IMG/VR virus record: IMGVR_UViG_2671180710_000023
Location: 1-38,215 of that record
DNA: 38,215 nt
Reading direction: 5' to 3' (one strand)
Source of the DNA: a virus
Lineage: Duplodnaviria > Heunggongvirae > Uroviricota > Caudoviricetes
The translations under genes and the position numbers were made by a program. Position 1 is the stretch's first letter; the number at the start of each line of letters is the position of its first letter. A model generated the notes under the pieces. The model worked only from the letters and a program-made list of their open reading frames with translations, ran no database searches and was not told the DNA's origin. Below are positions 3,555 to 38,215 of the stretch, piece by piece.

Positions 3555-3556
3555 AA

Positions 3557-5569: not shown

Positions 5570-5625
5570 GGAGGCAGTATTGCCCCCGGGAAGTAAGCGC
5601 CGATATTAAAGGCGTTTAAGAAGGT

Positions 5626-11363: not shown

Positions 11364-11461
11364 GATCGTGCTCCTGTGTAAGTTCAGGGCAGTATGTCTG
11401 GCGGTGGACGTAACGGATATTAAAGGAGATTAAGAAGAAAGGGGCCGGAGCCCCTGTGATA

Positions 11462-11743: not shown

Positions 11744-11745
11744 TG

Positions 11746-14845: not shown

Positions 14846-14846
14846 G

Positions 14847-15185: not shown

Positions 15186-15194
15186 AACGCCTCC

Positions 15195-16148: not shown

Positions 16149-16162
16149 GCTCTCTCCTTAAA

Positions 16163-17278: not shown

Positions 17279-17492
17279 TTTGCTGTCCCGCGTTATGTTG
17301 TCGGAGACAGTTTGTGAGAAATGCAGGCCCGGCGATTTTAATCTGCTTTAGAAAACATCAGGGGAGAAGGACAGGGAAAGCAATGCGGTGAACCGGAGGC
17401 GGTTATAAAACAGAGGCTGTAAAGCCTTTATAAAGGTAATACAGCCCCTCATTCGCTGGCAATGATAAATCACCCGCCTGAAGAGAGAAAAC

Positions 17493-17951: not shown

Positions 17952-17953
17952 TG

Positions 17954-18802: not shown

Positions 18803-20249
18803 AGAGAATGCGGGCCAACCGTTCCTGCAGATCGTCCGTGTTCATCTGAGGGTAGAGCTCCGCCAGTTCGCCCAGCAGCTCAGACGGGTTAACCCCATTT
18901 TCGACCCGCTTAAACAGAGGTGCCAGGACGGGTTCCAGCGTGCCATTTAACACACCTCCGTTCATCAGAATGTCCAGCGCGTCGTCAAGCTGCTGTTGTG
19001 CATCATGATCGGCGCTTATCGCCTCGGCAAATTCCGCAGGCACTGCCCCGTCCGCAACCGGTGCATCAGAGAGGTCAATATCCCCCTCCTGCAGCTGGTA
19101 CTCCCGCATGAAGTACTGCGGGGTCAGGCGCAGTCCCGCGCGGGTGAGTTTTTCGTCGCGGGTGGCGCGGGTGTCATCAATGGTCTCCTGTTCCCACATG
19201 GCCCAGACCGGACACGGCACATCGCCGAAGTTCAGGGTGACCACCGTTCTGATAACCTGATTCACTGCTGCCTGAATGATGTCCGCATCCGCATCGCGGA
19301 TATCAGCCGTTACCTCCAGCCCGGCCTGTGCAGAGGCCTTGTTACTGTTCGCTTCCGTGGTCTGATTCTGACCCAGTAATGCAATGGAGATCTCACTGCG
19401 TGACAGTGTGATCAGCTCGCGGAATACCTCGCTGCTGTCCGCCTTACCATCCGCGGCTTTGAGTTCGATGCTGCTGTCATCGGGGATGGCGGCCACCGCG
19501 TCCTCCACCATCTGCTCCATGGAGTCCAGCAGTTTTTCAATCTCTGCATCATTTGCACCCCTCGGGTGCTTACCGATCACCCACGGGGAGCCAAACTTTT
19601 CGGCAAAGCGGAGCCAGAATTTCATCCCGCCTTTCTTGAAGGCGACCGGCCAGAAGCACATGGACAGGTCCGGGAAACCGTAAGGATTGTCATACGAGGC
19701 ATCCTGTGCCGGCACCACGAATTTTGACGGTGACAGCAGCTCACCCTCCACACCCGCATCACGTGCCCGGAAGCGCAGGCAGTTGTCCGTATCAAACTGA
19801 AACCACTCAGGCGGTTTGCCGACAATATCCGTCACTGCCCACGCCCTGACCGAACGGCCCCACATGATTTCACAGGGCTGATACCCGTAGAGCACGGCAT
19901 CACTCATCTCACCGATGATGCGGGACAGATCCAGATCGTCGAGCATGTCGCGGATGAAACGGAAGACCCGGGCAGAAGCGTGACCGCGCTCCAGTCCACG
20001 CTCCAGTGATTTGAGCGCTGCTTTACGTCTGCGGATACTGCCCCCAACCAGCGGGTCGGTGCGCAGTTCGCGGTAGATACGGATATCCCGTCCCTGAGCC
20101 TTGAGAATGGGATCAGGATTGGGCAGGTACATTCCCAGAGCGTAAAAGTCGATGGCGCGACTGCGGGAGGCAATCTGCGCGGTCAGTGATTTTTTGGGTT
20201 CGGCGAACGCCACGAACTCATCGGGTGAAACCCAGATGCCTTTTGCCAT
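18756..20249 (-). CDS. Portal protein (Mu gp29-like, DUF935-type)
   Basis: 497 aa, immediately downstream of terminase large subunit. Confidence 0.75.
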   Translation of the reverse strand: MAKGIWVSPDEFVAFAEPKKSLTAQIASRSRAIDFYALGMYLPNPDPILKAQGRDIRIYRELRTDPLVGGSIRRRKAALKSLERGLERGHASARVFRFIRDMLDDLDLSRIIGEMSDAVLYGYQPCEIMWGRSVRAWAVTDIVGKPPEWFQFDTDNCLRFRARDAGVEGELLSPSKFVVPAQDASYDNPYGFPDLSMCFWPVAFKKGGMKFWLRFAEKFGSPWVIGKHPRGANDAEIEKLLDSMEQMVEDAVAAIPDDSSIELKAADGKADSSEVFRELITLSRSEISIALLGQNQTTEANSNKASAQAGLEVTADIRDADADIIQAAVNQVIRTVVTLNFGDVPCPVWAMWEQETIDDTRATRDEKLTRAGLRLTPQYFMREYQLQEGDIDLSDAPVADGAVPAEFAEAISADHDAQQQLDDALDILMNGGVLNGTLEPVLAPLFKRVENGVNPSELLGELAELYPQMNTDDLQERLARILFVANIWGRLHERDNG

Positions 20250-21565
20250 CAGAATCCCTCCAGCATGTGGGCGGCTTCACGGCGGCGGCGCGAACGCGCC
20301 ACCACCGGCCCTGACGGTCCGTCAGTGGCGTTAATAGCCAGAAAACAGGCCCATGTACGGTCGGCGTGACCTGCTGCATCACTTTCCGCCACAAAGCGAG
20401 GCGCTCCGGTAGGTCCGGTGATCTTACGGAGTTTATGCAGATCACTGCGCAGTACCACATCTCCCGCCGGAATACGCAGGCGGCGGTCCTCAAACATCTC
20501 CCTGCCACGGATCGCGAGGGTGAGCTTGTTCGGGCTGTTAAATATCACCCCCTCCACACGACTCCTGCCGTGGCGCTCCTGAGCATCTTCCACAGGCTTT
20601 TCTCCCATTCCGGTCTGATCCATACAGCAGCGCAGCACGCGGTAACGGAAAAATACGTCATCCAGCAAAGCATCCTGCTCAGCAAAGGTGGCCCGTTTAC
20701 GGGTGATGATTTCCCGGGTCCAGTAGACATCCCCCACCTGTTCAAGCACCCAGATCACAAACAGGTCATTACGGACAGCAATATCCACCCCCACAAAGCA
20801 GGGGCCACCCGTATAGTGCACCGGCAGTCCGGCAGCATCGTGCTCCACGCCGTCAATCAGTTCAAACGTCAGCCAGGCCGATGCCTCATCCAGCCACTTC
20901 AATTCAAACTCCTGTGCCCAGGCGTCATCATCGCTGAGCGCCTGTCGCATCTGTGCAATGTCACGCGGAAGGCCGTCGCGCACGGCACGGTAAATATCCA
21001 CGATGTGACGTGACCAGACATTTTCAAGGGCGTTGCTGGTCATCAGTTCATAAAACTTGTTTCCCTTGCCGTTCGGCGTCGATGTCACACGCAGTCTGTA
21101 GCCGTTGGAAATGACCGGAAACAGGGCGGTCCAGATTTTGCGACTGTCGGCATGGAAGGCGAACTCATCCAGAAAGACGTTAGCCGCAAACCCACGTGCC
21201 GTGTCGGGATTTGCCGGCAGGGCCGTGATACGGGAGCCACCGGGTAACTCCACCTCAAGCATGGTGTAGCGTTCGCCGCTTTCAGCACGGTAATAACTTT
21301 CCACCTCACGGGCCGCCATCCGGTAGGCGCTGCAGTGTTTTTTCACCCCCTCCACCATGGCTTCTTTTGCCTGACGCTCCCCACGCGATAGGATCACCCA
21401 GCGAGTGCGTCCCCCTGATGCCTCTGTTTCAAAACAGTCATCAACCAGTTCCAGCGTGGTGGTGAACGTCTTGCCCGTCTGGCGGGCAAACATGCCAATC
21501 TTGAAACGGGCACGATCCAGAAACCACGCCTGCTGGTAGGGATACAGCTGAATGGCCGCTGTCAT
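20249..21565 (-). CDS. Terminase large subunit
   Basis: 438 aa; N-terminal ATPase Walker A-like FARQTGKT, C-terminal nuclease-like region. Confidence 0.8.
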   Translation of the reverse strand: MTAAIQLYPYQQAWFLDRARFKIGMFARQTGKTFTTTLELVDDCFETEASGGRTRWVILSRGERQAKEAMVEGVKKHCSAYRMAAREVESYYRAESGERYTMLEVELPGGSRITALPANPDTARGFAANVFLDEFAFHADSRKIWTALFPVISNGYRLRVTSTPNGKGNKFYELMTSNALENVWSRHIVDIYRAVRDGLPRDIAQMRQALSDDDAWAQEFELKWLDEASAWLTFELIDGVEHDAAGLPVHYTGGPCFVGVDIAVRNDLFVIWVLEQVGDVYWTREIITRKRATFAEQDALLDDVFFRYRVLRCCMDQTGMGEKPVEDAQERHGRSRVEGVIFNSPNKLTLAIRGREMFEDRRLRIPAGDVVLRSDLHKLRKITGPTGAPRFVAESDAAGHADRTWACFLAINATDGPSGPVVARSRRRREAAHMLEGF

Positions 21566-22116
21566 GAGATCACCCCGTAAATCTGTTCCCGCACCATCTT
21601 CAGGGTTTCCAGACTCAGGCGGGTGTCGCCGGACTTCGCCTGTTTTTCCAGAGCATTCATCCGCGCCTCAATTTTTGCCAGCACCTCGGCCCGGAATCGC
21701 TTGTGGGTCACCGAAGCCCGTACCAGTGTGGCTATACTTTCCGAAGCAGTGGCCAGCAGTTTTGCGCGTTTTGCAGGATCATCACTTTCCCCGATTTCCT
21801 GCAGACGCATCAGAACATCCAGCATCTCGGTCTGAATCAGTGCCATCATCCCGGCAGAACGATCGTCCGCCTCGTCACCGGCTTCCTGCGCCATCAGACG
21901 TGCGGCCTCGGTGGCGGCGCGGATGCGGGCCAGTTGTCGCTCCATTTTGTAGCCAAACCGCTGCAGGGAAGAGCGGGTGATGACGTATCCCTTCTCCTTC
22001 AGCAGGGCTTCCAGCCGGGCGTAGCCGCTGAAGTTATTCTCCGTCAGGGCACGCTCCAGCCAGCGGCGTACTTCTGTCGGGAGAGAATCAATGCTGCTGC
22101 GACGTCCCATAATCAC
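21562..22116 (-). CDS. Terminase small subunit-like protein (Mu gp27-like)
   Basis: 184 aa, overlaps start of terminase large subunit; N-terminal basic/HTH-like region. Confidence 0.55.
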   Translation of the reverse strand: MIMGRRSSIDSLPTEVRRWLERALTENNFSGYARLEALLKEKGYVITRSSLQRFGYKMERQLARIRAATEAARLMAQEAGDEADDRSAGMMALIQTEMLDVLMRLQEIGESDDPAKRAKLLATASESIATLVRASVTHKRFRAEVLAKIEARMNALEKQAKSGDTRLSLETLKMVREQIYGVIS

Positions 22117-22424
22117 TCACTCCAGTATTTTTCCGGTCGGGCAATACCCGGGCCGCATTCCACGGTGTATTCCACAATATCCACACCAAGGCGACTCAGA
22201 TCGGCAAACCAGTCACCGGAAGGTCTCTTCTCCAGTTCCACCATTTTGCGATCTGCCAGGTAATCAAGCTCACGGCGCAGCTCCAGTTGCGTTGTGTCCG
22301 GGTAGATGGCGCGGGACACTTCCAGCAGCAGCGTCTCGCTGGCGGTGTAAGGGCGGGTTTTGTTCAGGGCAACCAGCAGACTCCAGCGCAGGGATTCGCG
22401 GCGTACCCGGGTAATATCGACCAT
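22113..22424 (-). CDS. Hypothetical late protein (Mu gp26-like position)
   Basis: 103 aa, coupled to neighbours. Confidence 0.4.
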   Translation of the reverse strand: MVDITRVRRESLRWSLLVALNKTRPYTASETLLLEVSRAIYPDTTQLELRRELDYLADRKMVELEKRPSGDWFADLSRLGVDIVEYTVECGPGIARPEKYWSE

Positions 22425-22750
22425 TATTGACCTCCGGTATTGCGGTACTGCTGTACCACTTCCAGTTTGTTGTAAAGTGCGTCCAGTTTGGCCTCGATGA
22501 CTGTCTGGCCACGGATATAATCCTCGCGACGGACATAATTCAGCGGTAAATCCGCTTTAAATCGCATAAATTCCTTTTCCAGCTCGCCCCAGTTGGAGGC
22601 GGACTGTTGCAGGGCCTGTTCAAGGGAGGCGAATCGTGCCGCCTGGCGTTCTTCTGTTTTACTGAACAACCATTTGGCGAGCCCTCCAACAAACCCCATG
22701 AAGGTGAGCAGAAAACTCACCACCGTCCAGAATTCAACCTGCAGTGTCAT
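22424..22750 (-). CDS. Membrane-anchored late protein (Mu gp25-like)
   Basis: 108 aa with N-terminal TM helix (FWTVVSFLLTFMGFVGGLAKWLF) then coiled coil. Confidence 0.45.
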   Translation of the reverse strand: MTLQVEFWTVVSFLLTFMGFVGGLAKWLFSKTEERQAARFASLEQALQQSASNWGELEKEFMRFKADLPLNYVRREDYIRGQTVIEAKLDALYNKLEVVQQYRNTGGQ

Positions 22751-23397
22751 TTCTGTAATCCTTCCCGTTCATCCAGTAGCGCGTTTATCTGGTTCCGCCA
22801 GCGACGACATTGCCCTGCGTTGTCGATGATGTTGGCGAGAACGTCACGCTGGGAGACGCCTGAGTCGCGTAGCCAGGCGTCAGCGGTTTCAGGTTGCCCG
22901 GTCGCTGCGCCAGTGCCGGTGCCAGCGGCGGCAACTGAGTCTGAATGACCGCTGTCGACGGATGCGTTGTCATATCCGAGTGCGGCGTTGTACTGGCGCA
23001 CGAAACCGCGAGTAAACACGCACTCAATGGGATGGCTCTTACCTTTTTCATCAATCCAGCGCTGTGTGACATCGTTAATTTGCCCCTGTAGTTGTTTGTT
23101 CTGACTCTCCAGTTGAGCAATCTGCCCAAGATAACCGGCCTCAGCCCGTTGCCCGGCGGCCACCTGCTCCTGATACCGTCTGGCCCAGGCCCGCAGTGCA
23201 GCGTTCTCAAGCGTTGTCTGCTCTGTTTTGTACGTGTCGAATGCTGACTGCAACTGGCTGAGCGCGATATCACCGTCACGCTTTGCAGAGTCATGACCAC
23301 TTCTGTATCCCATGGCATACAGGCCGACCAGAAAGGCATTGATAAGAATGGCCAGCAGAATGCCGCGCCACGGTAGATTTTTAACCAGATGCCACAC
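22747..23397 (-). CDS. i-spanin (Rz-like)
   Basis: Probable GTG start at 23397 with GGAGG 8 nt upstream; N-terminal TM (WRGILLAILINAFLVGLYAMGY), long coiled-coil periplasmic domain; follows endolysin. Confidence 0.65.
   Translation of the reverse strand: MWHLVKNLPWRGILLAILINAFLVGLYAMGYRSGHDSAKRDGDIALSQLQSAFDTYKTEQTTLENAALRAWARRYQEQVAAGQRAEAGYLGQIAQLESQNKQLQGQINDVTQRWIDEKGKSHPIECVFTRGFVRQYNAALGYDNASVDSGHSDSVAAAGTGTGAATGQPETADAWLRDSGVSQRDVLANIIDNAGQCRRWRNQINALLDEREGLQK
22785..23051 (-). CDS. o-spanin (Rz1-like lipoprotein) embedded in alternate frame of Rz
   Basis: MKKVRAIPLSACLLAVSCAS... signal peptide with lipobox-like AVSC then Pro-rich mature region; wholly inside the Rz gene. Confidence 0.55.
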   Translation of the reverse strand: MKKVRAIPLSACLLAVSCASTTPHSDMTTHPSTAVIQTQLPPLAPALAQRPGNLKPLTPGYATQASPSVTFSPTSSTTQGNVVAGGTR

Positions 23398-24121
23398 AGC
23401 TGCTGCCTCCCCATGTGAGATATCGCGGTGCCAGCTCGTGCAGGATGCGCTGCGGATAATGGCGGTTCTCCCGCCAGCTGGCCGCATTGCGTCCGGCATT
23501 CACCGTGGCGACATGTCCGAACCAGCGGGTGCTGTCCAGACCTTTCTGTGATGCAAGCCGCCTGTCCCGTTGTACCCAGCCCAGACCACCGTTATAGCCC
23601 GACAGTGTCATGGCCATACGCTCGCAGTCACTGGCGGCGCTGACACGCTGCCACAGCCAGCGGTCATAGCTGACCAGCGCCCGGATAGCCCATGCCGGAT
23701 TAAACGGCTCACGACTGCTCAGCATCGGTATCAACTGGCTTATCCAGTCGGCAGTGGCAGGCATGAACTGCGCCAGTCCCTGAGCGCCAGCCGGCGAGAT
23801 CGCATCAGGTCGCCAGCCGCTTTCCTGATGCAGTTGCGCGGCGAAATCGGCCACCGGCGCAGACAGTCCCCATTCAAGCCGGGCATTACGGATCACATCA
23901 TCGCGATACTGCAGCGCAGCCTGCGGAGGTTGTGCTGCGCATGCCTGGCTGAAAAAGCCGCCACACCAGAGCAACATTGCGACAAAGAATACCCATGCCA
24001 TATGAACCAGAAAGGTCCCGGCGCGGACTGACAGGCGTTCGGTTCTGATGAAGACCCGAAAGGCTTCGAAAGCCAGTTTCAGGGACATGCATACAATCCA
24101 GGTGATCTGCGGCCAGTTCAT
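23381..24121 (-). CDS. Endolysin, lytic transglycosylase (SLT-domain) type with N-terminal signal-anchor
   Basis: Hydrophobic N-terminal segment (MAWVFFVAMLLWCGGFF) then HQESGW catalytic-Glu motif region and GAQGLAQFMP typical of SLT domains. Confidence 0.7.
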   Translation of the reverse strand: MNWPQITWIVCMSLKLAFEAFRVFIRTERLSVRAGTFLVHMAWVFFVAMLLWCGGFFSQACAAQPPQAALQYRDDVIRNARLEWGLSAPVADFAAQLHQESGWRPDAISPAGAQGLAQFMPATADWISQLIPMLSSREPFNPAWAIRALVSYDRWLWQRVSAASDCERMAMTLSGYNGGLGWVQRDRRLASQKGLDSTRWFGHVATVNAGRNAASWRENRHYPQRILHELAPRYLTWGGSSCVASG

Positions 24122-24123
24122 GA

Positions 24124-24474
24124 TTAAAGCCCCATCGCAACAGCCAGGCAGACCGCTGCAACAATCAGTGCACGGCGGATTAACGCAGCAGAAAACACCA
24201 GGTGAAGGCCGGTCTGTACCGGGAAACGCCCTTCAGCCATCAGCCTGTCGTCATGTTTCAGGTACTGACCGGGACGGGCTTTGGGGAAGAGCGAACGGTC
24301 AAGCCAGTAACCCAGCACTGCTGCCAGCGTGATGAGTGCCAGCTTGTAGATCACAACAGGCAGCTGCTGTGGTGAGACCAGAGCGATGGTGCCCAGCAAC
24401 AGCACTGAGGTCAGCAGCCAGCCGCTGAGGCGAGGTTTTTTAACAGGGGGAATGAATTTTTTCAGGTTTTTCAT
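24124..24474 (-). CDS. Holin-like membrane protein (first gene of late/lysis transcript)
   Basis: ATG at 24474 with GAGGAG RBS; 2-3 predicted TM helices; immediately upstream of endolysin. Confidence 0.55.
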   Translation of the reverse strand: MKNLKKFIPPVKKPRLSGWLLTSVLLLGTIALVSPQQLPVVIYKLALITLAAVLGYWLDRSLFPKARPGQYLKHDDRLMAEGRFPVQTGLHLVFSAALIRRALIVAAVCLAVAMGL

Positions 24475-24604
24475 GTGTGTCTCCTCGTTTGGTGGAGACA
24501 GCATCACAAATACAGGGCGCAAAGGATTTTAAAGCGCGTTAAGAGAGCCGAGGATACGGGATGTGCAGGATAAACGATGAATTATTCACAGAGGAGAATA
24601 CGAT

Positions 24605-25790: not shown

Positions 25791-26777
25791 CTATTTAAGA
25801 ATAAAACGGTACTTACTGTCAGGAGTGCTTTGCTGATCAAGTAGCAGTGAACGACATGGAGCAGTCAAAACCCGAGCATAACTACCATCAGGGCTTATGT
25901 TAATGTAACAAACCTTGCCCTTAACACTATAATTTTCGGGGACGGATGCCTTTGCTGATACAGTAAATTTAAGGGTATGCCAGCCCGTTTTTTGCTTGTA
26001 GCTTGAAACCGAATGGAAATCATCTGAGTACTTATTTAACCCTGGAAACATGCTGCGCAGTGCGGGGATGGAATCTTCTATTATTTTATCGTTGGTTTTA
26101 ATGTTAAAAACGCTGGTTTCAGTAGAAGCTACTGCTTTGGCATTTCCCCATTTACCAGCGAACACAATCATTCCCACGAAAAATATTGCTACAAGAACTA
26201 ACACTCCCCCCAACACTACTACATGAGGCTTCCGGCTTCTGGTTGGTACAGTTGCGACTGATTTTGCACCGCTTTCCGATGGAGGTGATAGAGTTTTACT
26301 CTCATCACGAATATTCAGCAGATCATCAAAATAACCAAACACAGCCTGCAACTGCTCTTTGTCTAGGCCTTTAAGATGGGTTGTACCGAAATGCTTCAGA
26401 CAGTATCTGTCACGGTCAAGACGATACCCAGGGTCAGTAAGCGCCATTATTTTGCTGACCAGAAGATTACAGTCCTTCATATTCTGGATCTGTTGTGCAT
26501 ATCTCTGAAGGATCTCAACCGCACCATGATAATCAGCCGCAGTCATTTCATTAACTGTTTTGGTATTAAGTTTCGTGTGGATCGTCATCCATAGCTCGCG
26601 CTTACTTTCCCCCAGATCAACCAATTCATCCATCAATCTGTGTAAATCGCGTTTTTGCAGCAACGAAATTGGTTGCTGGGCCGAAGGAAGTATGTCAGCA
26701 GAATAGTTATGAATGGTAACATCACCGCTGACAACGTTACCCACATCCCCGTTAACTGTTTGCTTCTCTTTACTCAT
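25791..26777 (-). CDS. Single-pass membrane protein (repressor operon, translationally coupled to repressor)
   Basis: ATGA overlap with repressor stop; ~180-aa cytoplasmic N-domain, TM helix (VVVLGGVLVLVAIFFVGMIVFAG), ~120-aa C-domain; AT-rich codon usage unlike structural genes. Confidence 0.55.
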   Translation of the reverse strand: MSKEKQTVNGDVGNVVSGDVTIHNYSADILPSAQQPISLLQKRDLHRLMDELVDLGESKRELWMTIHTKLNTKTVNEMTAADYHGAVEILQRYAQQIQNMKDCNLLVSKIMALTDPGYRLDRDRYCLKHFGTTHLKGLDKEQLQAVFGYFDDLLNIRDESKTLSPPSESGAKSVATVPTRSRKPHVVVLGGVLVLVAIFFVGMIVFAGKWGNAKAVASTETSVFNIKTNDKIIEDSIPALRSMFPGLNKYSDDFHSVSSYKQKTGWHTLKFTVSAKASVPENYSVKGKVCYINISPDGSYARVLTAPCRSLLLDQQSTPDSKYRFILK

Positions 26778-27235
26778 CTTCTCTTGGTATTTTTGTTCAC
26801 TATTCCACCTGTTCCTATGGTTACGTTACCTTTGATAACATTCCCCAGAACATCTCCATGAATAACCTGTTCCGCCCGTTCTCTGGAGGAGCCAGTAGTC
26901 AAGGCCGACAAAACTGAACCTTTGACCTGTAATGGTGCCTGCCGGTAGTGCTGCAGTAACTCCATTTCATCACGTGATAAAGTTATACCTGATGACTCCC
27001 CGGTAAGAATGAACTGTACATTGGCCCCAATTCTTGCAAAGGCTGCAAGTAACTCACCTCCGGGAACAGCAACCCCTCGTTCATATTTCCCCCACATTTC
27101 TCTTGAAACGCCACAAAGGGCTGCTACTTCAGCCTGCTTGAGTGATAACCGCGAACGCTCAGCTTTGAACCGCGACGCGCAAAGAGAATCAAAATTCACA
27201 TAAACCTCATTGACAATGAGAACTATAGTTCTCAT
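26774..27235 (-). CDS. XRE-family HTH repressor (c-repressor analogue)
   Basis: HTH_3-like LSLKQAEVAALCGVSREMWGKYERGVAVPGGELLAAFARIGANVQFIL; divergent from Ner-like gene across operator-bearing promoter; true start may be GTG near 27199. Confidence 0.7.
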   Translation of the reverse strand: MRTIVLIVNEVYVNFDSLCASRFKAERSRLSLKQAEVAALCGVSREMWGKYERGVAVPGGELLAAFARIGANVQFILTGESSGITLSRDEMELLQHYRQAPLQVKGSVLSALTTGSSRERAEQVIHGDVLGNVIKGNVTIGTGGIVNKNTKRR

Positions 27236-28763: not shown

Positions 28764-30533
28764 ATGAATGCTGCCCTGACTGAACGACTGGTTTATGTCG
28801 CCCGCGCGGCACGTGACGCGGGGCATGGTAAACGCGGTGCAATATACGACGCTGCCTGTGCTGAACTTGGCATGTCCCGCGCCACTCTGCTGCGCAGGCT
28901 GAAGGAGGTATCTGTGACTGATAAACGCAAAAAACGCGCCGATGCCGGGCGCAGCGCCCTGACCCGCGACGAAGCCGCGCTGATATCTGCCACACTACGT
29001 GAGGCCACCCGCAAGAACGGTAAGCGTCTCTATTCCATCGCGGATGCAGTGGAAACCCTGCGGGCTAACGGCTTTATCTCCGCAGGCAGAACAGATGAAA
29101 CCACCGGTGAGTTTTTCCCGTTGTCCGAAGATGCCATCAGTCGTGCCCTGCGTAACTATGGCCTGCACCCGGAACAACTGGATGCCCCTGCGCCGCATAC
29201 CGAAGTGGCCAGTCTGCATCCCAATCATGTCTGGCAGATTGACGCCTCACTCTGCACGCTTTACTACCTGAGCAATGGACATAAAGGGCTGCAGGTGATG
29301 GACAGCGCGAAGTTCTACAAGAACAAGCCCGCTAACCTTGCCCGTATCGCCAGTGACCGCGTGTGGAGTTACGAGATTACCGACCATGCCAGCGGCTGGA
29401 TTTACGTTGAGTATGTGACGGGCGCGGAATCAGGTGAGAACCTGTGTTCTGTGCTTATCAACGCCATGCAGGAGCGTGGCGGCGCAGACGTGCTGCACGG
29501 CGTGCCGAAAATACTCTATCTCGACCCCGGCTCGGCAAACACCGCGGGTATGACGAAAAACATGTGCCGCTCACTGGGCATCGACCTGATAGCGCACAAG
29601 CCGCATAACGCCCGCGCCACCGGACAGGTGGAAAAGGCGCGTGACATTATCGAACGCAAGCTGGAGCCGGGTCTGAAATTCCGGCCGGTTCACAGTCTGG
29701 AAGAACTCAACGCGCTGGCCGCGAAATGGCGCAGCCACTTTAACGCAACAGCTGTTCACAGCCGCCACGGTAAAACCCGCACGGATATCTGGCTGAAGAT
29801 TACTGCTGAGCAGCTGAAAAAAGCGCCTTCCGTTGAGGTATGCCGTGAACTGGCTGTGGCGACACCAGAACTCCGCAAAGTCACGCCAAAACTTCGTGTC
29901 TCGTTCCGGGGCACTGAATTTGACGTATCAACGGTACCGGGCGTACTGGTTGGTGAAAAACTGATGATTACCCGTAACCCGTGGCGCAGCGATGTGGCAC
30001 AGGTGGTTCTGACCGGTGAGGACGGCCACGAGACGTTCTTCCTGGTCGAAGAGGTCAGAAAGAACGAGTTTGGCTTTGCTGAAGGCGCGGCGGTATTTGG
30101 CGAAAGTTACAAAGCCCTGCCGGAAACACCGGCACAGACGGCGGCAAAAGAAACCGAAGCGCTGGTCACCGGTACAGACAACGCCGCAGATGCAGCTGCC
30201 GCACGCAAGGCGAAGGCGCTGCCGTTCGGCGGGCGGCTTGACCCGTATAAACATATTGATGACGCCACACTTCCGGCCTGTATACCGAAGCGCGGTCAGG
30301 TCTCTGATGTACGCAGACCGCGCACTGAACAACGTCCCATGACTCATGTGGAGGCCGCGAAAGCCCTGCGCGATAAGTTCAGCGCCGACGGCCTTACCTG
30401 GACGCCGGAACATTACCGCCAGTTAACGGCACAGTACCCGGACGGCGTACCGGAAGCCGCACTGGATGAAGTAGTGGCCACGCTGACCACGCCGGCCCGC
30501 AGCAGCGTTATCAGCATTGTTAACGGCAACTGA
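28764..30533 (+). CDS. DDE transposase (Mu A-like, rve/integrase-core family)
   Basis: 589 aa; HVWQIDAS and LYLDPGSANT blocks consistent with DDE catalytic core; followed by overlapping AAA+ B gene. Confidence 0.8.
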   Translation: MNAALTERLVYVARAARDAGHGKRGAIYDAACAELGMSRATLLRRLKEVSVTDKRKKRADAGRSALTRDEAALISATLREATRKNGKRLYSIADAVETLRANGFISAGRTDETTGEFFPLSEDAISRALRNYGLHPEQLDAPAPHTEVASLHPNHVWQIDASLCTLYYLSNGHKGLQVMDSAKFYKNKPANLARIASDRVWSYEITDHASGWIYVEYVTGAESGENLCSVLINAMQERGGADVLHGVPKILYLDPGSANTAGMTKNMCRSLGIDLIAHKPHNARATGQVEKARDIIERKLEPGLKFRPVHSLEELNALAAKWRSHFNATAVHSRHGKTRTDIWLKITAEQLKKAPSVEVCRELAVATPELRKVTPKLRVSFRGTEFDVSTVPGVLVGEKLMITRNPWRSDVAQVVLTGEDGHETFFLVEEVRKNEFGFAEGAAVFGESYKALPETPAQTAAKETEALVTGTDNAADAAAARKAKALPFGGRLDPYKHIDDATLPACIPKRGQVSDVRRPRTEQRPMTHVEAAKALRDKFSADGLTWTPEHYRQLTAQYPDGVPEAALDEVVATLTTPARSSVISIVNGN

Positions 30534-30543
30534 GGAGGGAAAC

Positions 30544-31710
30544 ATGCTGGTACTGAAGCAGCAACTGAAAGAGGCCCGTATTCCACAGGCGGTGGTGGCG
30601 AGAGCTGTCGATGTTTCTGAGGCCACGCTGGCCCAGATTGTGAATCATAACGCGTGGCCCCGCACCAGCCCCGGAGAAGTGCGCCGGCGTCTTGCGTCCT
30701 GGCTGGAAAGTCAGGGAATTGATACAGCGAAGAGTTTTGATGCTGTACAGGGCGCGGCCACGCCCCGTACAGCGGGTACCACAGATAAAACGAGCCTCAG
30801 TGAGGAAGAGAATATGTTACTCAAAAAACAGGTGTTATTTCCAGCAACCAAAAAAGCGTTTGGTCTTTTTCGTGACCCGTTCGCCGACGAAGCCATGCAG
30901 GGTTCTGATGATGTGTTCACCACACCAGACATTCGCTACGTGCGTGAGGCGTTGTACCAGACAGCCCGTCATGGTGGGTTTATGGCCGTCATCGGTGAGT
31001 CCGGTGCGGGTAAATCCACGCTGCGCCGCGACCTGACTGAACGTATTAACCGCGAGAATGCGCCAGTAATTGTTATTGAGCCATACATCATCGCTATGGA
31101 AGATAACGATGTGAAAGGGAAAACCCTGAAGGCAGCAGCTATTGCCGAAGCCATTATCAGTACCATCGCACCACTGGAAAGCATCAGACGCAGTCAGGAC
31201 GCCCGCTTTCGCCAGTTGCATCGCGTCCTGAAAGACAGCAGCCAGGCGGGGTTCAGCCACGTTCTGGTGATTGAGGAGGCCCACAGTCTGCCCATTCCGA
31301 CACTGAAACACCTCAAACGCTTTTTTGAGCTGGAGTCCGGTTTCAAAAAACTGCTGTCCATCGTGCTGATTGGCCAGCCGGAACTGGCGACAAAACTGTC
31401 TGAACGCAATATGGAAGTCCGTGAAGTCGTTCAGCGCTGTGAGGTGGTCGAACTTCTGCCTCTGGACAATAACCTTGAAGAATTTCTGACGTTCAAACTG
31501 CAACGGGCCGGTAAACAGCTGACGGACATTATGGACGCCAGCGCAGTGGATGCCATACGTGCCCGCCTGAGCAATCCGGGAAGTCACCGTAAAAATATGG
31601 TCAGCCTGCTGTATCCGCTGGCCGTCAGTAACCTGGTAATAGCCGCCATGAATCTGGCAGCTGAAATCGGGGTTCCACAGGTCAACGCTGACGTTGTCAA
31701 AGGGGTTTAA
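30544..31710 (+). CDS. Transposition ATPase (Mu B / TniB-like AAA+)
   Basis: ATG 30544 preceded by GAGGAGGG; Walker A GESGAGKST, Walker B VLVIEEAH; immediately after transposase. Confidence 0.8.
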   Translation: MLVLKQQLKEARIPQAVVARAVDVSEATLAQIVNHNAWPRTSPGEVRRRLASWLESQGIDTAKSFDAVQGAATPRTAGTTDKTSLSEEENMLLKKQVLFPATKKAFGLFRDPFADEAMQGSDDVFTTPDIRYVREALYQTARHGGFMAVIGESGAGKSTLRRDLTERINRENAPVIVIEPYIIAMEDNDVKGKTLKAAAIAEAIISTIAPLESIRRSQDARFRQLHRVLKDSSQAGFSHVLVIEEAHSLPIPTLKHLKRFFELESGFKKLLSIVLIGQPELATKLSERNMEVREVVQRCEVVELLPLDNNLEEFLTFKLQRAGKQLTDIMDASAVDAIRARLSNPGSHRKNMVSLLYPLAVSNLVIAAMNLAAEIGVPQVNADVVKGV

Positions 31711-31712
31711 TA

Positions 31713-32009: not shown

Positions 32010-32540
32010 ATGGCAAAAAGTACAAAAGGGGCAAAACGTATCAAGGCCGCAGCGGCACTCTGGGTACCAGGGACACGCGAAGAGGTCATTGAGGGCATCA
32101 GACTGCTCGGTGACGCACAACGTGAACTGGTCAGGGCTGAAACAGAAATGAATGACGCCATTGGCGATATCACCGCACGTTATGCCCCGCTCACCGAGAG
32201 CCTGAAAAAACGCATGGCCGAACTGCAGTCCGGTATCCAGACATGGTGTGAGGCACACCGTGATGAACTGACCGGCAACGGGAAGGTGAAGTTCGCTAAC
32301 CTCACCACCGGCGAGGTGCAGTGGCGAAACCGTCCGCCATCAGTCAGTATCCGTGGGGCGGATAATGTTATTGAATTACTGAGACGTCTGGGGCTTGAGC
32401 GCTTTATCCGTGTAAAGGAGGAAATAAATAAAGACGCTATCCTGAATGAAAAGGACGCCGTGAAAAATATTCCCGGTATTACCATAAAAAGTGATATTGA
32501 GGATTTTTCAATAATTCCTTTTGAGCAGGATGTGCAGTAA
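32010..32540 (+). CDS. gam: Host-nuclease inhibitor Gam (Mu Gam family)
   Basis: 176 aa; ...TEMNDAIGDITARYAP...WCEAHRDELT...GKVKFANLTTGEVQWRNRPPSVSIRG...GITIKSDIEDFSIIPFEQ closely parallels Mu Gam as recalled. Confidence 0.85.
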   Translation: MAKSTKGAKRIKAAAALWVPGTREEVIEGIRLLGDAQRELVRAETEMNDAIGDITARYAPLTESLKKRMAELQSGIQTWCEAHRDELTGNGKVKFANLTTGEVQWRNRPPSVSIRGADNVIELLRRLGLERFIRVKEEINKDAILNEKDAVKNIPGITIKSDIEDFSIIPFEQDVQ

Positions 32541-34544: not shown

Positions 34545-34749
34545 ATCTGTTGTATGTGCCCTGTTCTGGTATTGTTTTGTCGGTTGGTGTACTGCTGAAC
34601 TGCACCGCCGTTCAGGGTTTTATTCACGTTACAGTGGTGCCAGCTACTGGATTAGCTGGTCGGTGATGTTCCTGTGCTGGCCTGTGGCGCTTCCTTTATA
34701 TGTCGATTATATCGGTGGCGCAAGTAAAAGGAGCAACGATGATGACTAA
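34534..34749 (+). CDS. Small membrane protein
   Basis: ATG 34534 overlapping upstream stop; two hydrophobic helices (VVCALFWYCFVGWCTA, WISWSVMFLCWPVALPLYV). Confidence 0.4.
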   Translation: MTAESVVCALFWYCFVGWCTAELHRRSGFYSRYSGASYWISWSVMFLCWPVALPLYVDYIGGASKRSNDDD

Positions 34750-35191
34750 ACAACATCTTATCCAGCTCATTCATATTGCCCGTAATGAACTGGGTATGGA
34801 TGAAGACACCTACCGCCAGATGTTACAGGGGCTGACCGGTAAAGCCTCAACCAAAGGAATGGATACCACACAACTAAACTGCGTGCTGGAATCCATGAAA
34901 AGGAAAGGCTTTCGCGTTAAGCCTGCCGGAAAAGCCAGCTCCGGTTTACCGCTGGATAACCATCCGCAGTCCAGGAAAATCCGTGCGCTATGGCTTGAAA
35001 TGGCTGCTGCCGGCATTGTTCGTGACCGTTCAGAAAATGCATTAGCGCGGTGGATCAAGCGGGAAACGGGCATCAGCGCCCTGCGCTGGCTCAGTACTGA
35101 ACAGGCAAGCAGTGTTATTGAGAAACTGAAGAAGTGGCAGCACAGAGCTGCGGGAGTAAAACATGAGCGACCTGAATCAGTTTCGAAGTAA
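34739..35191 (+). CDS. GemA-like regulatory protein (Mu gp16 family, DUF1018-like)
   Basis: ATG 34739 with AAGGAG RBS; ~150 aa basic protein immediately upstream of mor. Confidence 0.5.
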   Translation: MMTKQHLIQLIHIARNELGMDEDTYRQMLQGLTGKASTKGMDTTQLNCVLESMKRKGFRVKPAGKASSGLPLDNHPQSRKIRALWLEMAAAGIVRDRSENALARWIKRETGISALRWLSTEQASSVIEKLKKWQHRAAGVKHERPESVSK

Positions 35192-35561
35192 AGGGCCGGA
35201 ACTCCTGGTGGAGCTGGCACAGCATACCTCTGAGACCGTTCGCGAGATTATTGATATTGAGCCCGCAATTGCCGACCAGATTGGTCAGGCCGTCGCGAAC
35301 CGAATGATGCAGGTCTGGGGCGGGCAAAACGTTTATTTCCCGATGGGCATGGTATGGAAGGTCAGTCAGCGCGACCGGGAAATCTTCAGGGAGTTTAACG
35401 GACGCAACCACCACGAACTGGCCCGCAAGTTTGGTGTTTCGCTTCAGTGGGTCTACAGCGTGGTTAAGCGGGTCAGAAAAGAAGAACTGGATCGGATGCA
35501 GGGCAGGTTGTTTGATGAAGATCTGCCAGAGGAGACGAAAGACGTTAACAAATCCAGATAA
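35163..35561 (+). CDS. mor: Mor-family late transcription activator
   Basis: 132 aa; C-terminal HTH region ELARKFGVSLQWVYSVVKRVRKEE; last gene of early/middle operon, followed by terminator. Confidence 0.7.
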   Translation: MSDLNQFRSKGPELLVELAQHTSETVREIIDIEPAIADQIGQAVANRMMQVWGGQNVYFPMGMVWKVSQRDREIFREFNGRNHHELARKFGVSLQWVYSVVKRVRKEELDRMQGRLFDEDLPEETKDVNKSR

Positions 35562-35606
35562 TTCCTGCTTGTTAAAGTCCTTTCAAAAATCTCCTTATTG
35601 TATAAG

Positions 35607-35637
35607 AGCACGGTAGACCCTTTACCGTGCTTTTTTT
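35607..35637 (+). terminator. Rho-independent terminator after mor
   Basis: Perfect 9-bp stem AGCACGGTA / TACCGTGCT with 7-nt loop followed by TTTTTT; 45 bp downstream of mor stop. Confidence 0.75.
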
Positions 35638-35675: not shown

Positions 35676-36308
35676 ATGTTTGACGTTTCGTTATTAAATC
35701 TGCCATGGGCAACACTGGTGACCCTGACCAGTGGCTATATTGGGTATTTTATTGCGAATGTGGGGCTGAAGGATCACCACAAACCCATTGAGGTGACTTT
35801 TTCTTCGCTGATTTTTGGCCTGACAGCAATGATGGCTTACCAGGCTGTTATGTGGGCAGGTCTGAATGCCTGGCTGGCAACACCCCCAGCACTTCTGTGT
35901 GCCGTTACATGCGGTGCGTGGTGGCGCAGGTACGGTCGCAAATGGATGTACAGATTACTGTGGAATAATGATATTTCATGGTCTGACGATACCAGCTCAG
36001 CATGGCAGGCAATGTTTGATCAAACAGGCTTCAGCGTCACCGAGGTCAGAGTGATTCTTCGCGATGGTTCCGGTATGATGTCACGGCTGCCAGGGAACTT
36101 TGAAGAGTGGCCTAACGGTCCGTTTACCCTGGGAAATAAAGGCGATATGGTTCTTTACGTCACGCACAGCAGCCCTTCAGGAAGTAACGAATGGGAAGAG
36201 TATAAAGGCGTGGTTGATAAGTACTGGGGAGCTCTGGCAACCTATATTCCAGCAGATCAGATTGCCAGAGTGGAGATCAGGCGCGTTCGTGCAACGAACG
36301 ATGAATGA
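35676..36308 (+). CDS. 3-TM membrane protein with C-terminal soluble domain (accessory gene at prophage right end)
   Basis: ATG 35676 with AGGGAGA RBS (the upstream TTG-initiated extension in the ORF track runs through the terminator); three hydrophobic helices then ~110-aa hydrophilic domain. Confidence 0.55.
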   Translation: MFDVSLLNLPWATLVTLTSGYIGYFIANVGLKDHHKPIEVTFSSLIFGLTAMMAYQAVMWAGLNAWLATPPALLCAVTCGAWWRRYGRKWMYRLLWNNDISWSDDTSSAWQAMFDQTGFSVTEVRVILRDGSGMMSRLPGNFEEWPNGPFTLGNKGDMVLYVTHSSPSGSNEWEEYKGVVDKYWGALATYIPADQIARVEIRRVRATNDE

Positions 36309-36479
36309 TGTTTATTTTTTCCCTGGAGCAGGAGCTGCCGGCATAGTGGTTTTATTGGCAGAGGAAGACGATTCTCCTTTTCTACCGGAATCGCGCTCGA
36401 ACGTCACAATGTGCTTGCTTTTGGGCTTTTCTGAGTAATCCAGGCTGTCATGCTTATTGTTTTGAGTAGTCATTGGAAT

Positions 36480-36669
36480 CATCCTTTTTGTTACGGGTCA
36501 TGTTTCAGCAAACTCGATTCTAAGTTGCCAGGAAGGATGATTTCAATGCCCGACTTATCTATCGTATAGCGGAAAAGAATTTCAGTTCTGTTCACCAGAA
36601 CCCATGTTAACCCACTCCAATTCGTTATTTATCTCACGGATCCCCCTTCATTTATCTCATGTCTGATCA
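36480..36669. repeat. Right-end terminal region with repeated TTTCA-containing motifs (putative transposase-binding sites) ending ...TGATCA
   Basis: Recurrent CATGTTTCAG / GATTTCAATG / AATTTCAGTT / TTATTTATCTCA / TCATTTATCTCA motifs in the last ~190 bp before the host junction; Mu R-end sites contain TTTCA cores. Confidence 0.45.
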
Positions 36670-38215
36670 GATGACGCCGCAGAATGCGCGTATCTGGTAT
36701 ATCAGCCCGAAAGAGCCGCACAATAAAACGGCTTATTTTGTCGATGCGCCGTATCAGGTCGATAAAATCAGCGCACAAACTTTCGCCGACTGGCAGAAAA
36801 AAGCCGCCGACATTGCGCTCTCTTTGCCAGAGCTTAACCCCTATATTCCTGACGATTTCTCGCTGATTAAGTCAGAGAAGAAATATGACCATCCAGAGCT
36901 GATTGTTGATGAGTCGAATCTGCGTGTGGTGTATGCGCCAAGCCGTTATTTTTCCAGCGAACCCAAAGCTGATGTCAGCCTGATTTTGCGTAATCCGAAA
37001 GCCATGGACAGCGCCCGCAATCAGGTGATGTTTGCGCTCAATGATTATCTCGCAGGGCTGGCGCTTGATCAGTTAAGCAACCAGGCGTCGGTTGGTGGCA
37101 TAAGTTTTTCCACCAACGCTAACAACGGCCTTATGGTTAATGCTAATGGTTACACCCAGCGTCTGCCGCAGCTGTTCCAGGCATTGCTGGAGGGCTACTT
37201 TAGCTATACCGCCACGGAAGATCAGCTTGAGCAGGCAAAGTCCTGGTATAACCAGATGATGGATTCCGCAGAAAAGGGCAAAGCGTTCGAGCAGGCGATT
37301 ATGCCCGCGCAGATGCTCTCGCAAGTGCCGTACTTCTCGCGAGATGAACGGCGCAAAATTTTGCCCTCCATTACGTTGAAAGAGGTGCTGGCCTATCGCG
37401 ACGCCTTAAAATCAGGGGCTCGACCAGAGTTTATGGTTATTGGCAACATGACCGAAGCCCAGGCAACAACGCTGGCACGCGATGTGCAAAAACAGTTGGG
37501 CGCTGATGGTTCAGAGTGGTGTCGTAACAAAGATGTCGTGGTCGATAAAAAACAATCCGTCATCTTTGAAAAAGCCGGTAACAGCACCGACTCCGCACTG
37601 GCAGCGGTATTTGTACCGACTGGCTACGATGAATACACCAGCTCAGCCTATAGCTCACTGTTGGGGCAGATCGTACAGCCGTGGTTCTACAATCAGTTGC
37701 GTACCGAAGAACAGTTGGGCTATGCCGTGTTTGCATTCCCAATGAGCGTGGGGCGTCAGTGGGGCATGGGCTTCCTTTTGCAAAGCAATGATAAACAGCC
37801 TTCATTCTTGTGGGAGCGTTACAAGGCGTTTTTCCCAACCGCAGAGGCAAAATTGCGGGCGATGAAGCCAGAAGAGTTTGCGCAAATCCAGCAGGCGGTA
37901 ATTACCCAGATGCTGCAGGCACCGCAAACGCTCGGCGAAGAAGCATCGAAGTTAAGTAAAGATTTCGATCGCGGCAATATGCGCTTCGATTCGCGTGATA
38001 AAATCGTGGCCCAGATTAAACTGCTGACGCCGCAAAAACTGGCCGATTTCTTCCATCAGGCGGTAGTCGAGCCGCAAGGCATGGCTATCCTGTCGCAGAT
38101 TTCCGGCAGCCAGAATGGGAAAGCCGAATATGTACACCCTGAAGGCTGGAAAGTGTGGGAGAACGTCAGCGCGTTGCAGCAAACAATGCCCCTGATGAGT
38201 GAAAAGAATGAGTGA
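36659..38215 (+). CDS. ptrA: Host protease III (pitrilysin) gene, 3-prime portion truncated by prophage insertion; first ~3 codons of the ORF are phage-end sequence
   Basis: Translation from TPQNARIWYISPKEPHNKTAYFVDAPYQ... to ...QTMPLMSEKNE matches my recollection of the C-terminal half of E. coli PtrA (M16 family); homology begins abruptly at about 36670. Confidence 0.7.
   Translation: MSDQMTPQNARIWYISPKEPHNKTAYFVDAPYQVDKISAQTFADWQKKAADIALSLPELNPYIPDDFSLIKSEKKYDHPELIVDESNLRVVYAPSRYFSSEPKADVSLILRNPKAMDSARNQVMFALNDYLAGLALDQLSNQASVGGISFSTNANNGLMVNANGYTQRLPQLFQALLEGYFSYTATEDQLEQAKSWYNQMMDSAEKGKAFEQAIMPAQMLSQVPYFSRDERRKILPSITLKEVLAYRDALKSGARPEFMVIGNMTEAQATTLARDVQKQLGADGSEWCRNKDVVVDKKQSVIFEKAGNSTDSALAAVFVPTGYDEYTSSAYSSLLGQIVQPWFYNQLRTEEQLGYAVFAFPMSVGRQWGMGFLLQSNDKQPSFLWERYKAFFPTAEAKLRAMKPEEFAQIQQAVITQMLQAPQTLGEEASKLSKDFDRGNMRFDSRDKIVAQIKLLTPQKLADFFHQAVVEPQGMAILSQISGSQNGKAEYVHPEGWKVWENVSALQQTMPLMSEKNE

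Follow-up and report, generated by a model that had tools for sequence, protein, structure and literature searches.

A BcepMu-like transposable prophage inserted in the ptrA gene of Escherichia coli

Introduction

The genomes of the transposable phages BcepMu and phiE255 have TG...CA termini, encode a Tn552-related rve transposase and carry 23-bp imperfect direct repeats (PMC2628397, PMC2920897), which have been described at the ends of both phages (PMC2920897). The TnpA protein of BcepMu carries the annotation of Tn552/IS1604 rve transposase, and the closest isolate to the phage considered here, Escherichia phage PhiKM (PQ738613), is filed by NCBI under Bcepmuvirus. In the accessible papers we found no published target-duplication length for either BcepMu or the Pseudomonas phage B3, and our search of the literature found no transposition, binding or transcription experiment on the Escherichia coli lineage to which PhiKM belongs.

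Here, we analyze a stretch of 38,215 nucleotides (hereafter, the window) from the IMG/VR virus record IMGVR_UViG_2671180710_000023, and compare its gene content, its one visible phage end and its host flank with those of described phages and of complete E. coli genomes. The evidence indicates that positions 1-36669 very probably make up the greater part of a transposable myovirus prophage of the BcepMu family (Bcepmuvirus-like), which entered the E. coli ptrA gene at codon 448 by DDE transposition. The element is a member of an already known family, and its insertion is an ordinary one for a phage of this known type.

Results

The junction in ptrA

The original prediction, made from the letters of this DNA, had put a phage end in ...CA against ptrA at about position 36669, and alignment with the intact ptrA of E. 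coli strain S21 (L001) shows this position to be exact to the base. The last phage base is 36669 (...CATGTCTGATCA) and ptrA sequence starts at 36670; at the break, ...TGTCTGATCA/GATGACGCCG in the window corresponds to ...CGTCTGGCGAT/GATGACGCCG in the intact gene, and since base 36669 is A in the window and T in the S21 gene, the break at 36669/36670 is unambiguous. The insertion point in ptrA lies between nucleotides 1343 and 1344, within codon 448. Two reading frames extend from the junction:

36670..38215, + strand: 3' remnant of ptrA (pitrilysin/protease III, M16A), from the last base of codon 448 through codons 449-962 to the stop
36659..38215, + strand: fusion ORF of 518 aa, MSDQ followed by PtrA 449-962, its ATG lying within the terminal repeat R1 (see below)

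The remnant is identical to the S21 gene over 1546/1546 nt, and its translation corresponds to residues 449-962 (of 962) of PtrA with 100% identity (514/514 aa), so that the downstream frame is indeed the PtrA C-terminus and ptrA is disrupted, as had been proposed. Its identity to the E. coli protein and its position ahead of recB, in keeping with the recC-ptrA-recB context, place it in the pitrilysin family (M16A); the final 8 nt of ptrA are shared with the start of recB, in the same arrangement as in S21. Neither the 5' half of ptrA, which encodes the N-terminal catalytic half of the protein, nor any intact in-frame N-terminal coding sequence upstream of the remnant was found anywhere in the window. 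PtrA would be cut short after about residue 447 and should be inactive.

The fusion ORF is probably fortuitous, because there is no Shine-Dalgarno sequence upstream of its ATG (36659). An exact-product look-up found no gene on record for the 518-aa fusion, and found the 514-aa product on four contigs, one of them with an N-gap in its ptrA gene. Three Logan contigs with the 514-aa product were rejected as instances of the same insertion: they start 1-2 nt before the ATG and have 14-42 nt differences from the window, and their retrieval is a selection effect of the look-up.

With positions 36200-37200 as the query, megablast matched ptrA, beginning at 36670, in all but one of 5,426 complete E. 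coli genomes (5,425); a match spanning the junction was found in 0/5,426, none of them having this phage in ptrA. In exact-pattern scans, the right junction was absent from the genome, viral and metagenome contig collections, and the predicted left junction (ptrA ...GGCGAT, 0-10 nt, then TGATGCGCCGCGCGATAAA) was absent from the genome and metagenome contig collections.

The same phage end beside many host genes

The phage sequence that leads up to the junction (35600-36669) is present in 261 of the 5,426 complete genomes, at full length in 118. Among the matches listed, all stop at query base 1070, which is window position 36669, and they do so beside different host genes (yfiB, gudD, mdfA, zraS, irp1, ptsP, fadM and others). 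Across 36 IMG/VR loci from several lineages the terminus is likewise conserved and its flanks are many and different. Because the same terminus is joined, at the exact base, to many different flanking genes in the 118 genomes, ...TGATCA at 36669 is a real transposition end. The earlier claim of a transposable phage that uses many sites, rather than a tRNA attachment site, is thereby borne out. Some E. coli genomes carry two or three copies of the terminus.

These data bear on the suspicion that the contig is a chimera in which a phage end has been wrongly assembled onto ptrA. Such an artefact would fit a window that starts within a repeat and resembles a draft contig, and a junction that occurs in no other record. 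Against this, the join falls at the canonical terminal nucleotide of 118 other genomes, where a random mis-join would land about once in tens of thousands, and a unique site is just what random transposition predicts. An assembly error is therefore very improbable.

Target duplications in complete relatives

Seven independent complete prophages of this lineage (37.15-38.49 kb) start with TGATGCGCC..., end with ...TGATCA and, in 7/7 cases, are flanked by exact target duplications of 6 bp; the 5-bp duplication originally expected does not hold for this family. Tn552 makes duplications of 6-7 bp, with which the 6 bp of these relatives are in keeping. SCU-387 was considered as an independent lineage for the duplication length and set aside, as it is a relic island of 5.5 kb, located between ppdD and nadC and without a second end. 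The prophage has 5'-TG...CA-3' termini, the right one (...TGATCA) seen in the window and the left one (TGATGCGCC...) as deduced from the seven relatives. The other end of the window copy lies outside the window, so that a single junction is visible, and the relatives suggest the following target:

36670..36675, strand not assigned: predicted 6-bp target GATGAC

We predict that GATGAC is duplicated at the other phage end, with a left junction of the form ...GAACGTCTGGCGATGATGAC/TGATGCGCCGCGCGATAAA... and GATGAC on both sides of the prophage.

A junction may be real without being the product of a simple insertion: a transposition-associated adjacent deletion or inversion, or a recombination between two prophage copies, might have moved the 5' half of ptrA elsewhere or removed it. 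The position of the second end and of the ptrA 5' half outside the window is compatible with such a history, for which the multiple copies of the terminus in some genomes would be suitable recombination substrates. The perfect identity of the ptrA remnant to an intact allele, however, suggests a recent and otherwise undisturbed locus, and each of the seven complete prophages is a simple insertion flanked by its duplication. We consider a secondary event of this kind unlikely and retain a simple insertion as the preferred reading.

Gene content and orientation

The ORF map, Pfam searches and syntenic RefSeq annotation gave the late-arm assignments in the following list, which runs along the window:

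1..2579, + strand: invertible tail-fibre region, four alternative C-terminal cassettes and a tail-fibre assembly gene
2586..24522, - strand: late arm with lysis genes, Mu-type head, P2-type contractile tail and tail fibre
2586-3554, - strand: tail fibre (late arm)
6150-7304, - strand: gpD (P2-type tail)
11746-12267, - strand: tail tube (P2-type tail)
12267-13694, - strand: tail sheath (P2-type tail)
18756-20249, - strand: Mu portal (late arm)
20249-21565, - strand: terminase (late arm)
26774..27235, - strand: candidate repressor with an HTH of Cro/C1 type, located where the two arms diverge, position matching BcepMu gp17
28764..30533, + strand: DDE transposase, rve integrase core (PF00665 the sole Pfam match; phrog_310 transposase, 4e-146)
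30517..31710, + strand: ExeA/AAA_22 transposition ATPase (AAA_22, 4e-20; phrog_296, 'DNA transposition protein')
32010..32540, + strand: Mu Gam-like host-nuclease inhibitor (PF07352, 4e-41)
34700..35191, + strand: GemA homologue (PF06252, 2e-40)
35163..35561, + strand: Mor-family transcription activator, last early-arm gene (PF08765, 1e-43)
35604..35634, + strand: intrinsic terminator directly 3' of mor (14-bp stem and U-run, -20.1 kcal/mol, z -6.45)
35676..36308, + strand: 210-aa hypothetical protein (phrog_12870), in an accessory module missing from most relatives
36312..36473, - strand: 53-aa ORF facing inward (phrog_15726; WP_001571575.1 in the RefSeq annotation of relatives)
36517..36546, - strand: sigma-70-like promoter TTGAAA-18-TAGAAT (10/12), inward, upstream of the 53-aa ORF, by consensus match

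Since the window breaks inside a repeat, the invertible tail-fibre cassettes, it is probably a draft contig. The transposase is 68.7-69.4% identical (amino acids, over 98% of its length) to the TnpA proteins of BcepMu and phiE255 and 56% to that of B3; the neighboring ATPase is a homologue of BcepMu gp08 and would be a functional analogue of MuB. PADLOC and Pfam searches of the end-proximal accessory genes returned no match.

The early arm lies on the + strand, oriented like ptrA, recB and recD as had been noted. The further suggestion of phage transcription directed outward into the host genes is doubtful: the strong terminator (35604-35634) follows mor, the ORF closest to the end is directed inward, and there is no sigma-70-like promoter on the + strand between that terminator and the phage end. 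We expect early transcripts to end at this terminator, about 1 kb short of the phage terminus.

The gene map also bears on the possibility of a strict Mu-type phage, with a MuA/MuB-type system, a 5-bp duplication and transcription outward into ptrA'-recBD. The Gam, GemA, Mor and Mu-type portal genes, the many insertion sites and the TG...CA ends would all suit such a phage. The transposase of the window, however, has an rve core as its only domain, with no Mu-specific Pfam domain at E<=0.01; it is 69% identical to BcepMu TnpA, and the tblastn matches listed for it, from 50,697 phage records, comprise BcepMu, phiE255, B3-type and related phages, with Mu not among them. Nor is the collinear map of Mu (c, ner, A, B and the late genes all rightward, transposase beside the left end) found here: the gene order is divergent, the late genes occupy the opposite strand and about 6-8 kb separate the transposase from the nearest terminus. 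With the 6-bp duplications of 7/7 relatives and the terminator and promoter findings given above, a strict Mu-type phage is already largely refuted, and we allow it hardly any probability. The original description as Mu-type thus stands insofar as the phage is transposable, and fails for the Mu family: its transposase is of the Tn552/BcepMu rve type without Mu-specific domains, its arms diverge, and the sequence comparisons indicate that it is not Mu-type in the family sense.

Architecture of the phage end

The BcepMu-family assignment is matched by the organization of the terminus itself, whose features, from inside to outside, are:

36571..36585, + strand: conserved subterminal block GGAAAAGAATTTCAG, including the third TTTCA
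36584..36602, - strand: perfect hairpin of 7 bp with a T-rich tail after it, terminator-like for transcripts that come into the phage from the host side
36624..36646, + strand: R2 (GTTATTTATCTCACGGATCCCCC), second 23-bp imperfect direct repeat, core ATTTATCTCACG at 36627-36638, putative transposase-binding site
36647..36669, + strand: R1 (TTCATTTATCTCATGTCTGATCA), terminal 23-bp repeat, core ATTTATCTCATG at 36650-36661, 3'-CA at 36668-36669

The terminus thus carries two 23-bp-spaced repeats, ATTTATCTCAYG, in the BcepMu/phiE255 pattern. R2 is identical to R1 at 14/23 positions, the R1 terminus is identical across the seven complete prophages, and the likeness to the described ends makes R1 and R2 candidate transposase sites. 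The TTTCA-containing repeats of the original prediction are not the terminal repeats; the significant repeat is ATTTATCTCA, which occurs at 36627 and 36650, with a spacing of 23 bp, and in only these two copies in the window. TTTCA has three copies in 36480-36669 (36503, 36541 and 36580; 0.31 expected), an enrichment of nominal P = 0.004 in a post hoc test on an AT-rich stretch. We rejected these motifs as transposase sites in view of this weak enrichment, their not being inverted as a set at the other end and the absence of one in a relative. A third site at 36553-36564 (ACTTATCTATCG), with 9/12 matches to R2, was judged too weak.

A near-identical 11-mer, the counterpart of the subterminal block (the AAAGAATTTCA block), lies in direct orientation 73 nt inside the other terminus. 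This 30-bp conserved subterminal block, direct at both ends, could serve BcepMu-type transposition or packaging as a cis element not described before. The hairpin is restricted to this lineage, and the -35 element of the inward promoter overlaps an arm of an inverted repeat (36471-36486 / 36533-36548).

Discussion

How the insertion may have arisen

The likeness to BcepMu allows a mechanism to be outlined. By homology, the rve-type transposase (28764-30533) would bind the two 23-bp repeats at each phage end and nick at the terminal 3'-CA; the ExeA-type AAA+ ATPase (30517-31710) would deliver the target DNA; and both ends would then be joined to the target 6 bp apart, repair leaving a 6-bp duplication, here predicted to be GATGAC. 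The outermost phage DNA (36480-36669) would accordingly be read, from inside to outside, as the promoter region of the small inward ORF, the subterminal block, the lineage-specific hairpin and the two repeats that end in ...TGATCA.

Consequences for the host

ptrA-recB-recD has been described as one operon (PMC12342828). The recB and recD genes, normally co-transcribed from a promoter upstream of ptrA, would now lie more than 36.6 kb of prophage away from it, and because the prophage separates both genes from that promoter, the insertion is probably polar on them. With recB-recD severed from the only described promoter of the operon, the lysogen might be naturally RecBCD-deficient or RecBCD-low, or might owe its level of RecBCD to read-through out of the end-proximal accessory gene, a possibility that we put forward tentatively and consider rather less likely than its converse. 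If true, recombination, the handling of linear DNA and the sensitivity to other phages would be altered.

The insertion, which is expected to inactivate protease III, is notable solely for this separation of recB and recD from their promoter, and it does not challenge current understanding. Its value is mainly as a clean worked example that the phiE255/BcepMu-like prophages, present in about 5% of complete E. coli genomes, are true transposable phages. Their TGATG...GATCA ends, two 23-bp-spaced end repeats and 6-bp duplication (rather than the 5 bp of Mu) should help annotators to set exact prophage boundaries.

Comparison with known systems

With Mu, the phage has in common the Gam, GemA and Mor proteins, the Mu-type portal and head genes, the TG...CA ends, an invertible tail-fibre segment and, presumably, a lifestyle in which DDE transposition to near-random sites serves both integration and replication. 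It differs in lacking MuA-specific domains, in having an ExeA-type ATPase instead of MuB, an early arm inverted relative to the late genes and a P2-type tail, in showing two recognisable end sites where Mu has three, and in the 6-bp duplication of its relatives (7/7) instead of 5 bp. Pseudomonas phage B3, the virion of which is siphovirus-type, is related by its transposition module only; B3 and Tn552 share with our phage the transposase family with an rve core, Tn552 itself being a small transposon and not a phage.

The likeness to BcepMu and phiE255 comprises the rve/Tn552-type transposase (69% amino acid identity) with an ExeA-type ATPase directly 3' of it, in the position of gp08; an early arm (transposase...gam...gemA, mor) that runs to one terminus, divergent from the lysis/Mu-head/P2-tail arm, in a gene order that mirrors the map of BcepMu; and TG...CA termini with two 23-bp-spaced repeats per end, of core G(A/C)GATA(A/T)AT. 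The end seen in the window shares its layout, TGA... with 12-mers at positions 9-20 and 32-43, with both ends of BcepMu, and the left ends of our phage's relatives have these positions occupied as well. The differences are a nucleotide identity of about 65-70%, in patches only, the E. coli host, an additional accessory module of about 0.95 kb (terminator, 210-aa gene and 53-aa ORF) between mor and the terminus, and, where BcepMu has its acyltransferase end, an invertible tail-fibre region of Gin/Min type with multiple cassettes.

PhiKM (94% nucleotide identity in the early region, 97.5% amino acid identity in the transposase) and the RefSeq-annotated prophages in at least 118 complete genomes of E. 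coli, such as C51, 2014C-3075 and A24, belong to the same phage lineage as the prophage of the window. Their terminal 290 bp are 98-100% identical to those of the window; they occupy other insertion sites, and their accessory and immunity regions are mosaic with respect to the prophage in ptrA.

The breakpoint in ptrA

A transposable-phage end abutting the protease III gene had been predicted at about 36669, and alignment with the uninterrupted locus of strain S21 (recC, ptrA at 1658-4546, recB) confirmed this description to the base. Intact S21 ptrA reads ...GAACGTCTGGCGAT and then GATGACGCCGCAG across the breakpoint, the window ...ATCTCATGTCTGATCA and then GATGACGCCGCAG; because base 36669 differs from intact ptrA, the break is unambiguous. 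From 36670 to the window end, 1546/1546 nt are identical to S21 ptrA and specify PtrA residues 449-962 at 100% identity, so that the downstream ORF is indeed ptrA. The insertion lies in codon 448, between nt 1343 and 1344, and the window contains nothing of the 5' half of ptrA. When 36200-37200 was compared with 5,426 complete E. coli genomes, the ptrA match began exactly at 36670 in 5,425 of them, and a junction-spanning match was found in none (0/5,426). Since the ptrA identity, the breakpoint base and the absent 5' half agree, the predicted coordinates are correct and the phage/host junction within ptrA is a real feature, rightly placed and read.

Neither predicted junction, left or right, turned up when three public collections were scanned for the patterns or in two look-ups of exact proteins. 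Two unrelated Logan contigs (L012 and L014), whose first base is the ptrA base after the junction (GATGACGCC...), carry 14-42 differences from the window over 1546 nt; rather than the same insertion, their start position most likely reflects how the exact-product look-up selects its hits.

Phage ends and target duplications

The terminal 1070 bp of phage sequence are present in 261 of the 5,426 complete genomes (full length in 118) and, among the matches listed, end at the base equivalent to 36669. The adjoining host genes vary (yfiB, gudD, a DUF4153 gene, fimbrial genes, zraS, mdfA, gspL, irp1, yfaV, ptsP, fadM), and 36 further IMG/VR loci, from several diverged lineages, combine the same end architecture with many different flanks. 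The differing flanks of these 118 copies and 36 loci bear out the proposed insertion of transposable type: integration is by transposition into many sites, not at an att site.

Both ends of seven complete related prophages at different sites (L002-L008; 37.15-38.49 kb) were located by script. All seven start TGATGCGCCGCG..., finish ...CATGTCTGATCA and sit between two exact direct copies of a 6-bp host sequence (CGGCGC, AATCAA, CCATGT, GCAAGC, CATCCC, CGAAGA, ATTTGC). The original prediction expected 5 bp, which is the stagger of Mu but not of these relatives, because it had assigned the phage to the wrong family. The duplicated hexamer of the window copy is predicted to be GATGAC (36670-36675).

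The sole significant internal repeat in 36480-36669 is ATTTATCTCA, at 36627 and 36650 with a spacing of 23 bp; the 12-mer ATTTATCTCAYG has no copy elsewhere in the window. Read inward, the window terminus is TGATCAGACATGAGATAAATGAAGGGGGATCCGTGAGATAAAT and the other end of the relatives TGATGCGCCGCGCGATAAACGTACCTATTTCCGTGAGATAAAT. Across diverged IMG/VR lineages, the best-conserved parts of the terminus are the two repeat cores and the terminal GTCT(A/G)ATCA. The ATTTATCTCA copies are the end repeats, and the TTTCA motifs (36503, 36541 and 36580), a weakly enriched set, were rejected in that role. The second TTTCA is part of one arm of an inverted repeat (16 nt; 36471-36486 / 36533-36548), and this repeat overlaps the inward promoter-like -35 and the RBS/start of a 53-aa ORF; the third falls within a conserved subterminal block.

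Subterminal features
36571-36585, + strand: AAAAGAATTnCA, surrounded by the conserved subterminal block (IMG/VR lineage conservation)
36584-36602, - strand: perfect hairpin, lineage-specific

The core of this block, which extends over ~30 bp and is kept across diverged lineages, is the 11-mer AAAGAATT[AT]CA. Each of the seven complete prophages (~38 kb) has exactly two copies, at depths of 73 nt from one terminus and 85 nt from the opposite one; the window copy is at 36574-36584, and the 73-nt-deep copy of L002-L008 lies near the other terminus. The copies share a strand and are thus direct, not inverted.

In most IMG/VR relatives the terminus lies ~165 bp beyond mor; the window and the common E. 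coli lineage carry ~0.95 kb extra between the two.

Module between mor and the terminus
35604-35634, + strand: strong intrinsic terminator (-20.1 kcal/mol, z = -6.45)
within the ~0.95-kb module, 35604-36473: 210-aa gene, phrog_12870
same module, inward-facing: phrog_15726, a hydrophilic ORF of 53 aa that has a promoter-like site of its own

Neither module gene gave a Pfam, PADLOC or defence-system match. The module is missing from most IMG/VR relatives and from BcepMu.

A ~145-bp stretch of the terminus, including both end repeats (36516-36660), recurs as a solitary, unannotated relic (~89% identity) in ~196 E. coli records, among them 109 plasmids, which are large (about 85-210 kb) and come mostly from isolates of poultry origin. 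In the one plasmid examined, pEND_Eco 12053-1 (L015, 4001-4144), the relic is bordered by an IS3 remnant on one side and a LysR-family gene on the other. Strain SCU-387 (L016/L017) has a 5.5-kb relic island between ppdD and nadC, with a Mor-family gene and a diverged terminus copy (...ATTTATCTCACGTCCCTTCA) directly next to ppdD; the island is apparently a decayed remnant of one end of a related transposable prophage.

The other end and variable regions

The window starts inside the prophage and holds no left-end sequence; it therefore stops ~0.5-1.8 kb of prophage short of the second junction and does not reach the ptrA 5' half. At its start are four alternative tail-fibre C-terminal cassettes, each beginning with a shared ~150-nt block and finishing ...PRNIAFNYIVRA*, and an assembly gene.

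Tail-fibre region
19-522, 533-964, 975-1448 and 1459-1962, inverted relative to the expressed fibre gene: four tandem tail-fibre cassettes
1962-2579, likewise inverted, following the cassettes: tail-fibre assembly gene
2586-3554, - strand: expressed tail-fibre gene

In relatives the other terminus and a gene for a Gin/Min-type recombinase lie beside the cassette block, whose orientation is flipped between the window and strain 2014C-3075; because of this recombinase and inversion, the block looks like a Gin/Min-type multiple-inversion system. The window start, inside a crossover repeat, looks like a contig break.

The segment from the lysis genes to the repressor (24100-26780) is also variable. 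Neither Pfam nor PADLOC gave a match for its ORFs of 328, 196, 158 and 132 aa. A DNA adenine methylase takes their place in other E. coli copies, and the window version recurs only in strain A24 among the prophages retrieved.

Expected consequences for ptrA, recB and recD

PtrA would lose everything beyond about residue 447 of 962. The C-terminal remnant would lack a signal peptide and could be translated solely from a fortuitous ATG in the terminal repeat, without a Shine-Dalgarno sequence. Its perfect identity to the intact allele speaks for a recent insertion. The early genes are oriented as ptrA, recB and recD, as originally noted; the outward transcription into ptrA suggested with this orientation is doubtful, being unsupported by the sequence, which has the terminator and, in a simple scan, no + strand sigma-70-like promoter between terminator and phage end or in the ptrA remnant. 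These three host genes are described as a single operon whose promoter precedes ptrA and in which the recB RBS is located within ptrA (PMC12342828). Since more than 36.6 kb of prophage now part recB-recD from that promoter, reduced RecBCD in the lysogen is a reasonable, testable expectation.

Affiliation of the phage

Principal gene arms
27286-36308, + strand: early arm
28764-30533, + strand: transposase, 589 aa, rve integrase core the sole Pfam match
directly after the transposase, + strand: AAA_22/ExeA-type ATPase (Pfam; PHROG 'DNA transposition protein')
early arm after the ATPase, + strand: Gam, GemA and Mor (Pfam)
~24.5 kb down to 2586, - strand: late arm, with T4-type terminase, Mu-type portal, P2-type sheath/tube/gpD and tail fibre

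The transposase is 97.5% identical to that of Escherichia phage PhiKM, which NCBI classifies under Bcepmuvirus. Identity drops to 69% against the BcepMu and phiE255 transposases and to 56% against that of Pseudomonas phage B3. In published accounts the family has termini of the form TG...CA and an rve transposase related to Tn552 (PMC2628397). Each end is further described as carrying 23-bp imperfect direct repeats, presumed to be transposase sites, and the end beside mor as containing a pac site (PMC2920897). Because of its transposase, its ATPase, its divergent map and these traits, the phage is a member of the BcepMu group, Mu-like in lifestyle but not Mu proper; the assignment to the Mu-type family must be abandoned. 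The two-arm map of BcepMu mirrors that of the window, with mor adjoining one terminus and the transposase lying 5-6 kb further inward, and both its ends share the layout of the window phage, with cores at positions 9-20 and 32-43. 'phiE255-like' prophages were already reported in E. coli by PHASTER-type analyses (PMC5794082; bioRxiv 10.1101/2022.05.07.487787). The phage type, its ends and its occurrence in E. coli are thus already known or in databases, and the ptrA site is new solely in the trivial sense expected of random transposition; the points of note are the expected recBD polarity and the subterminal block.
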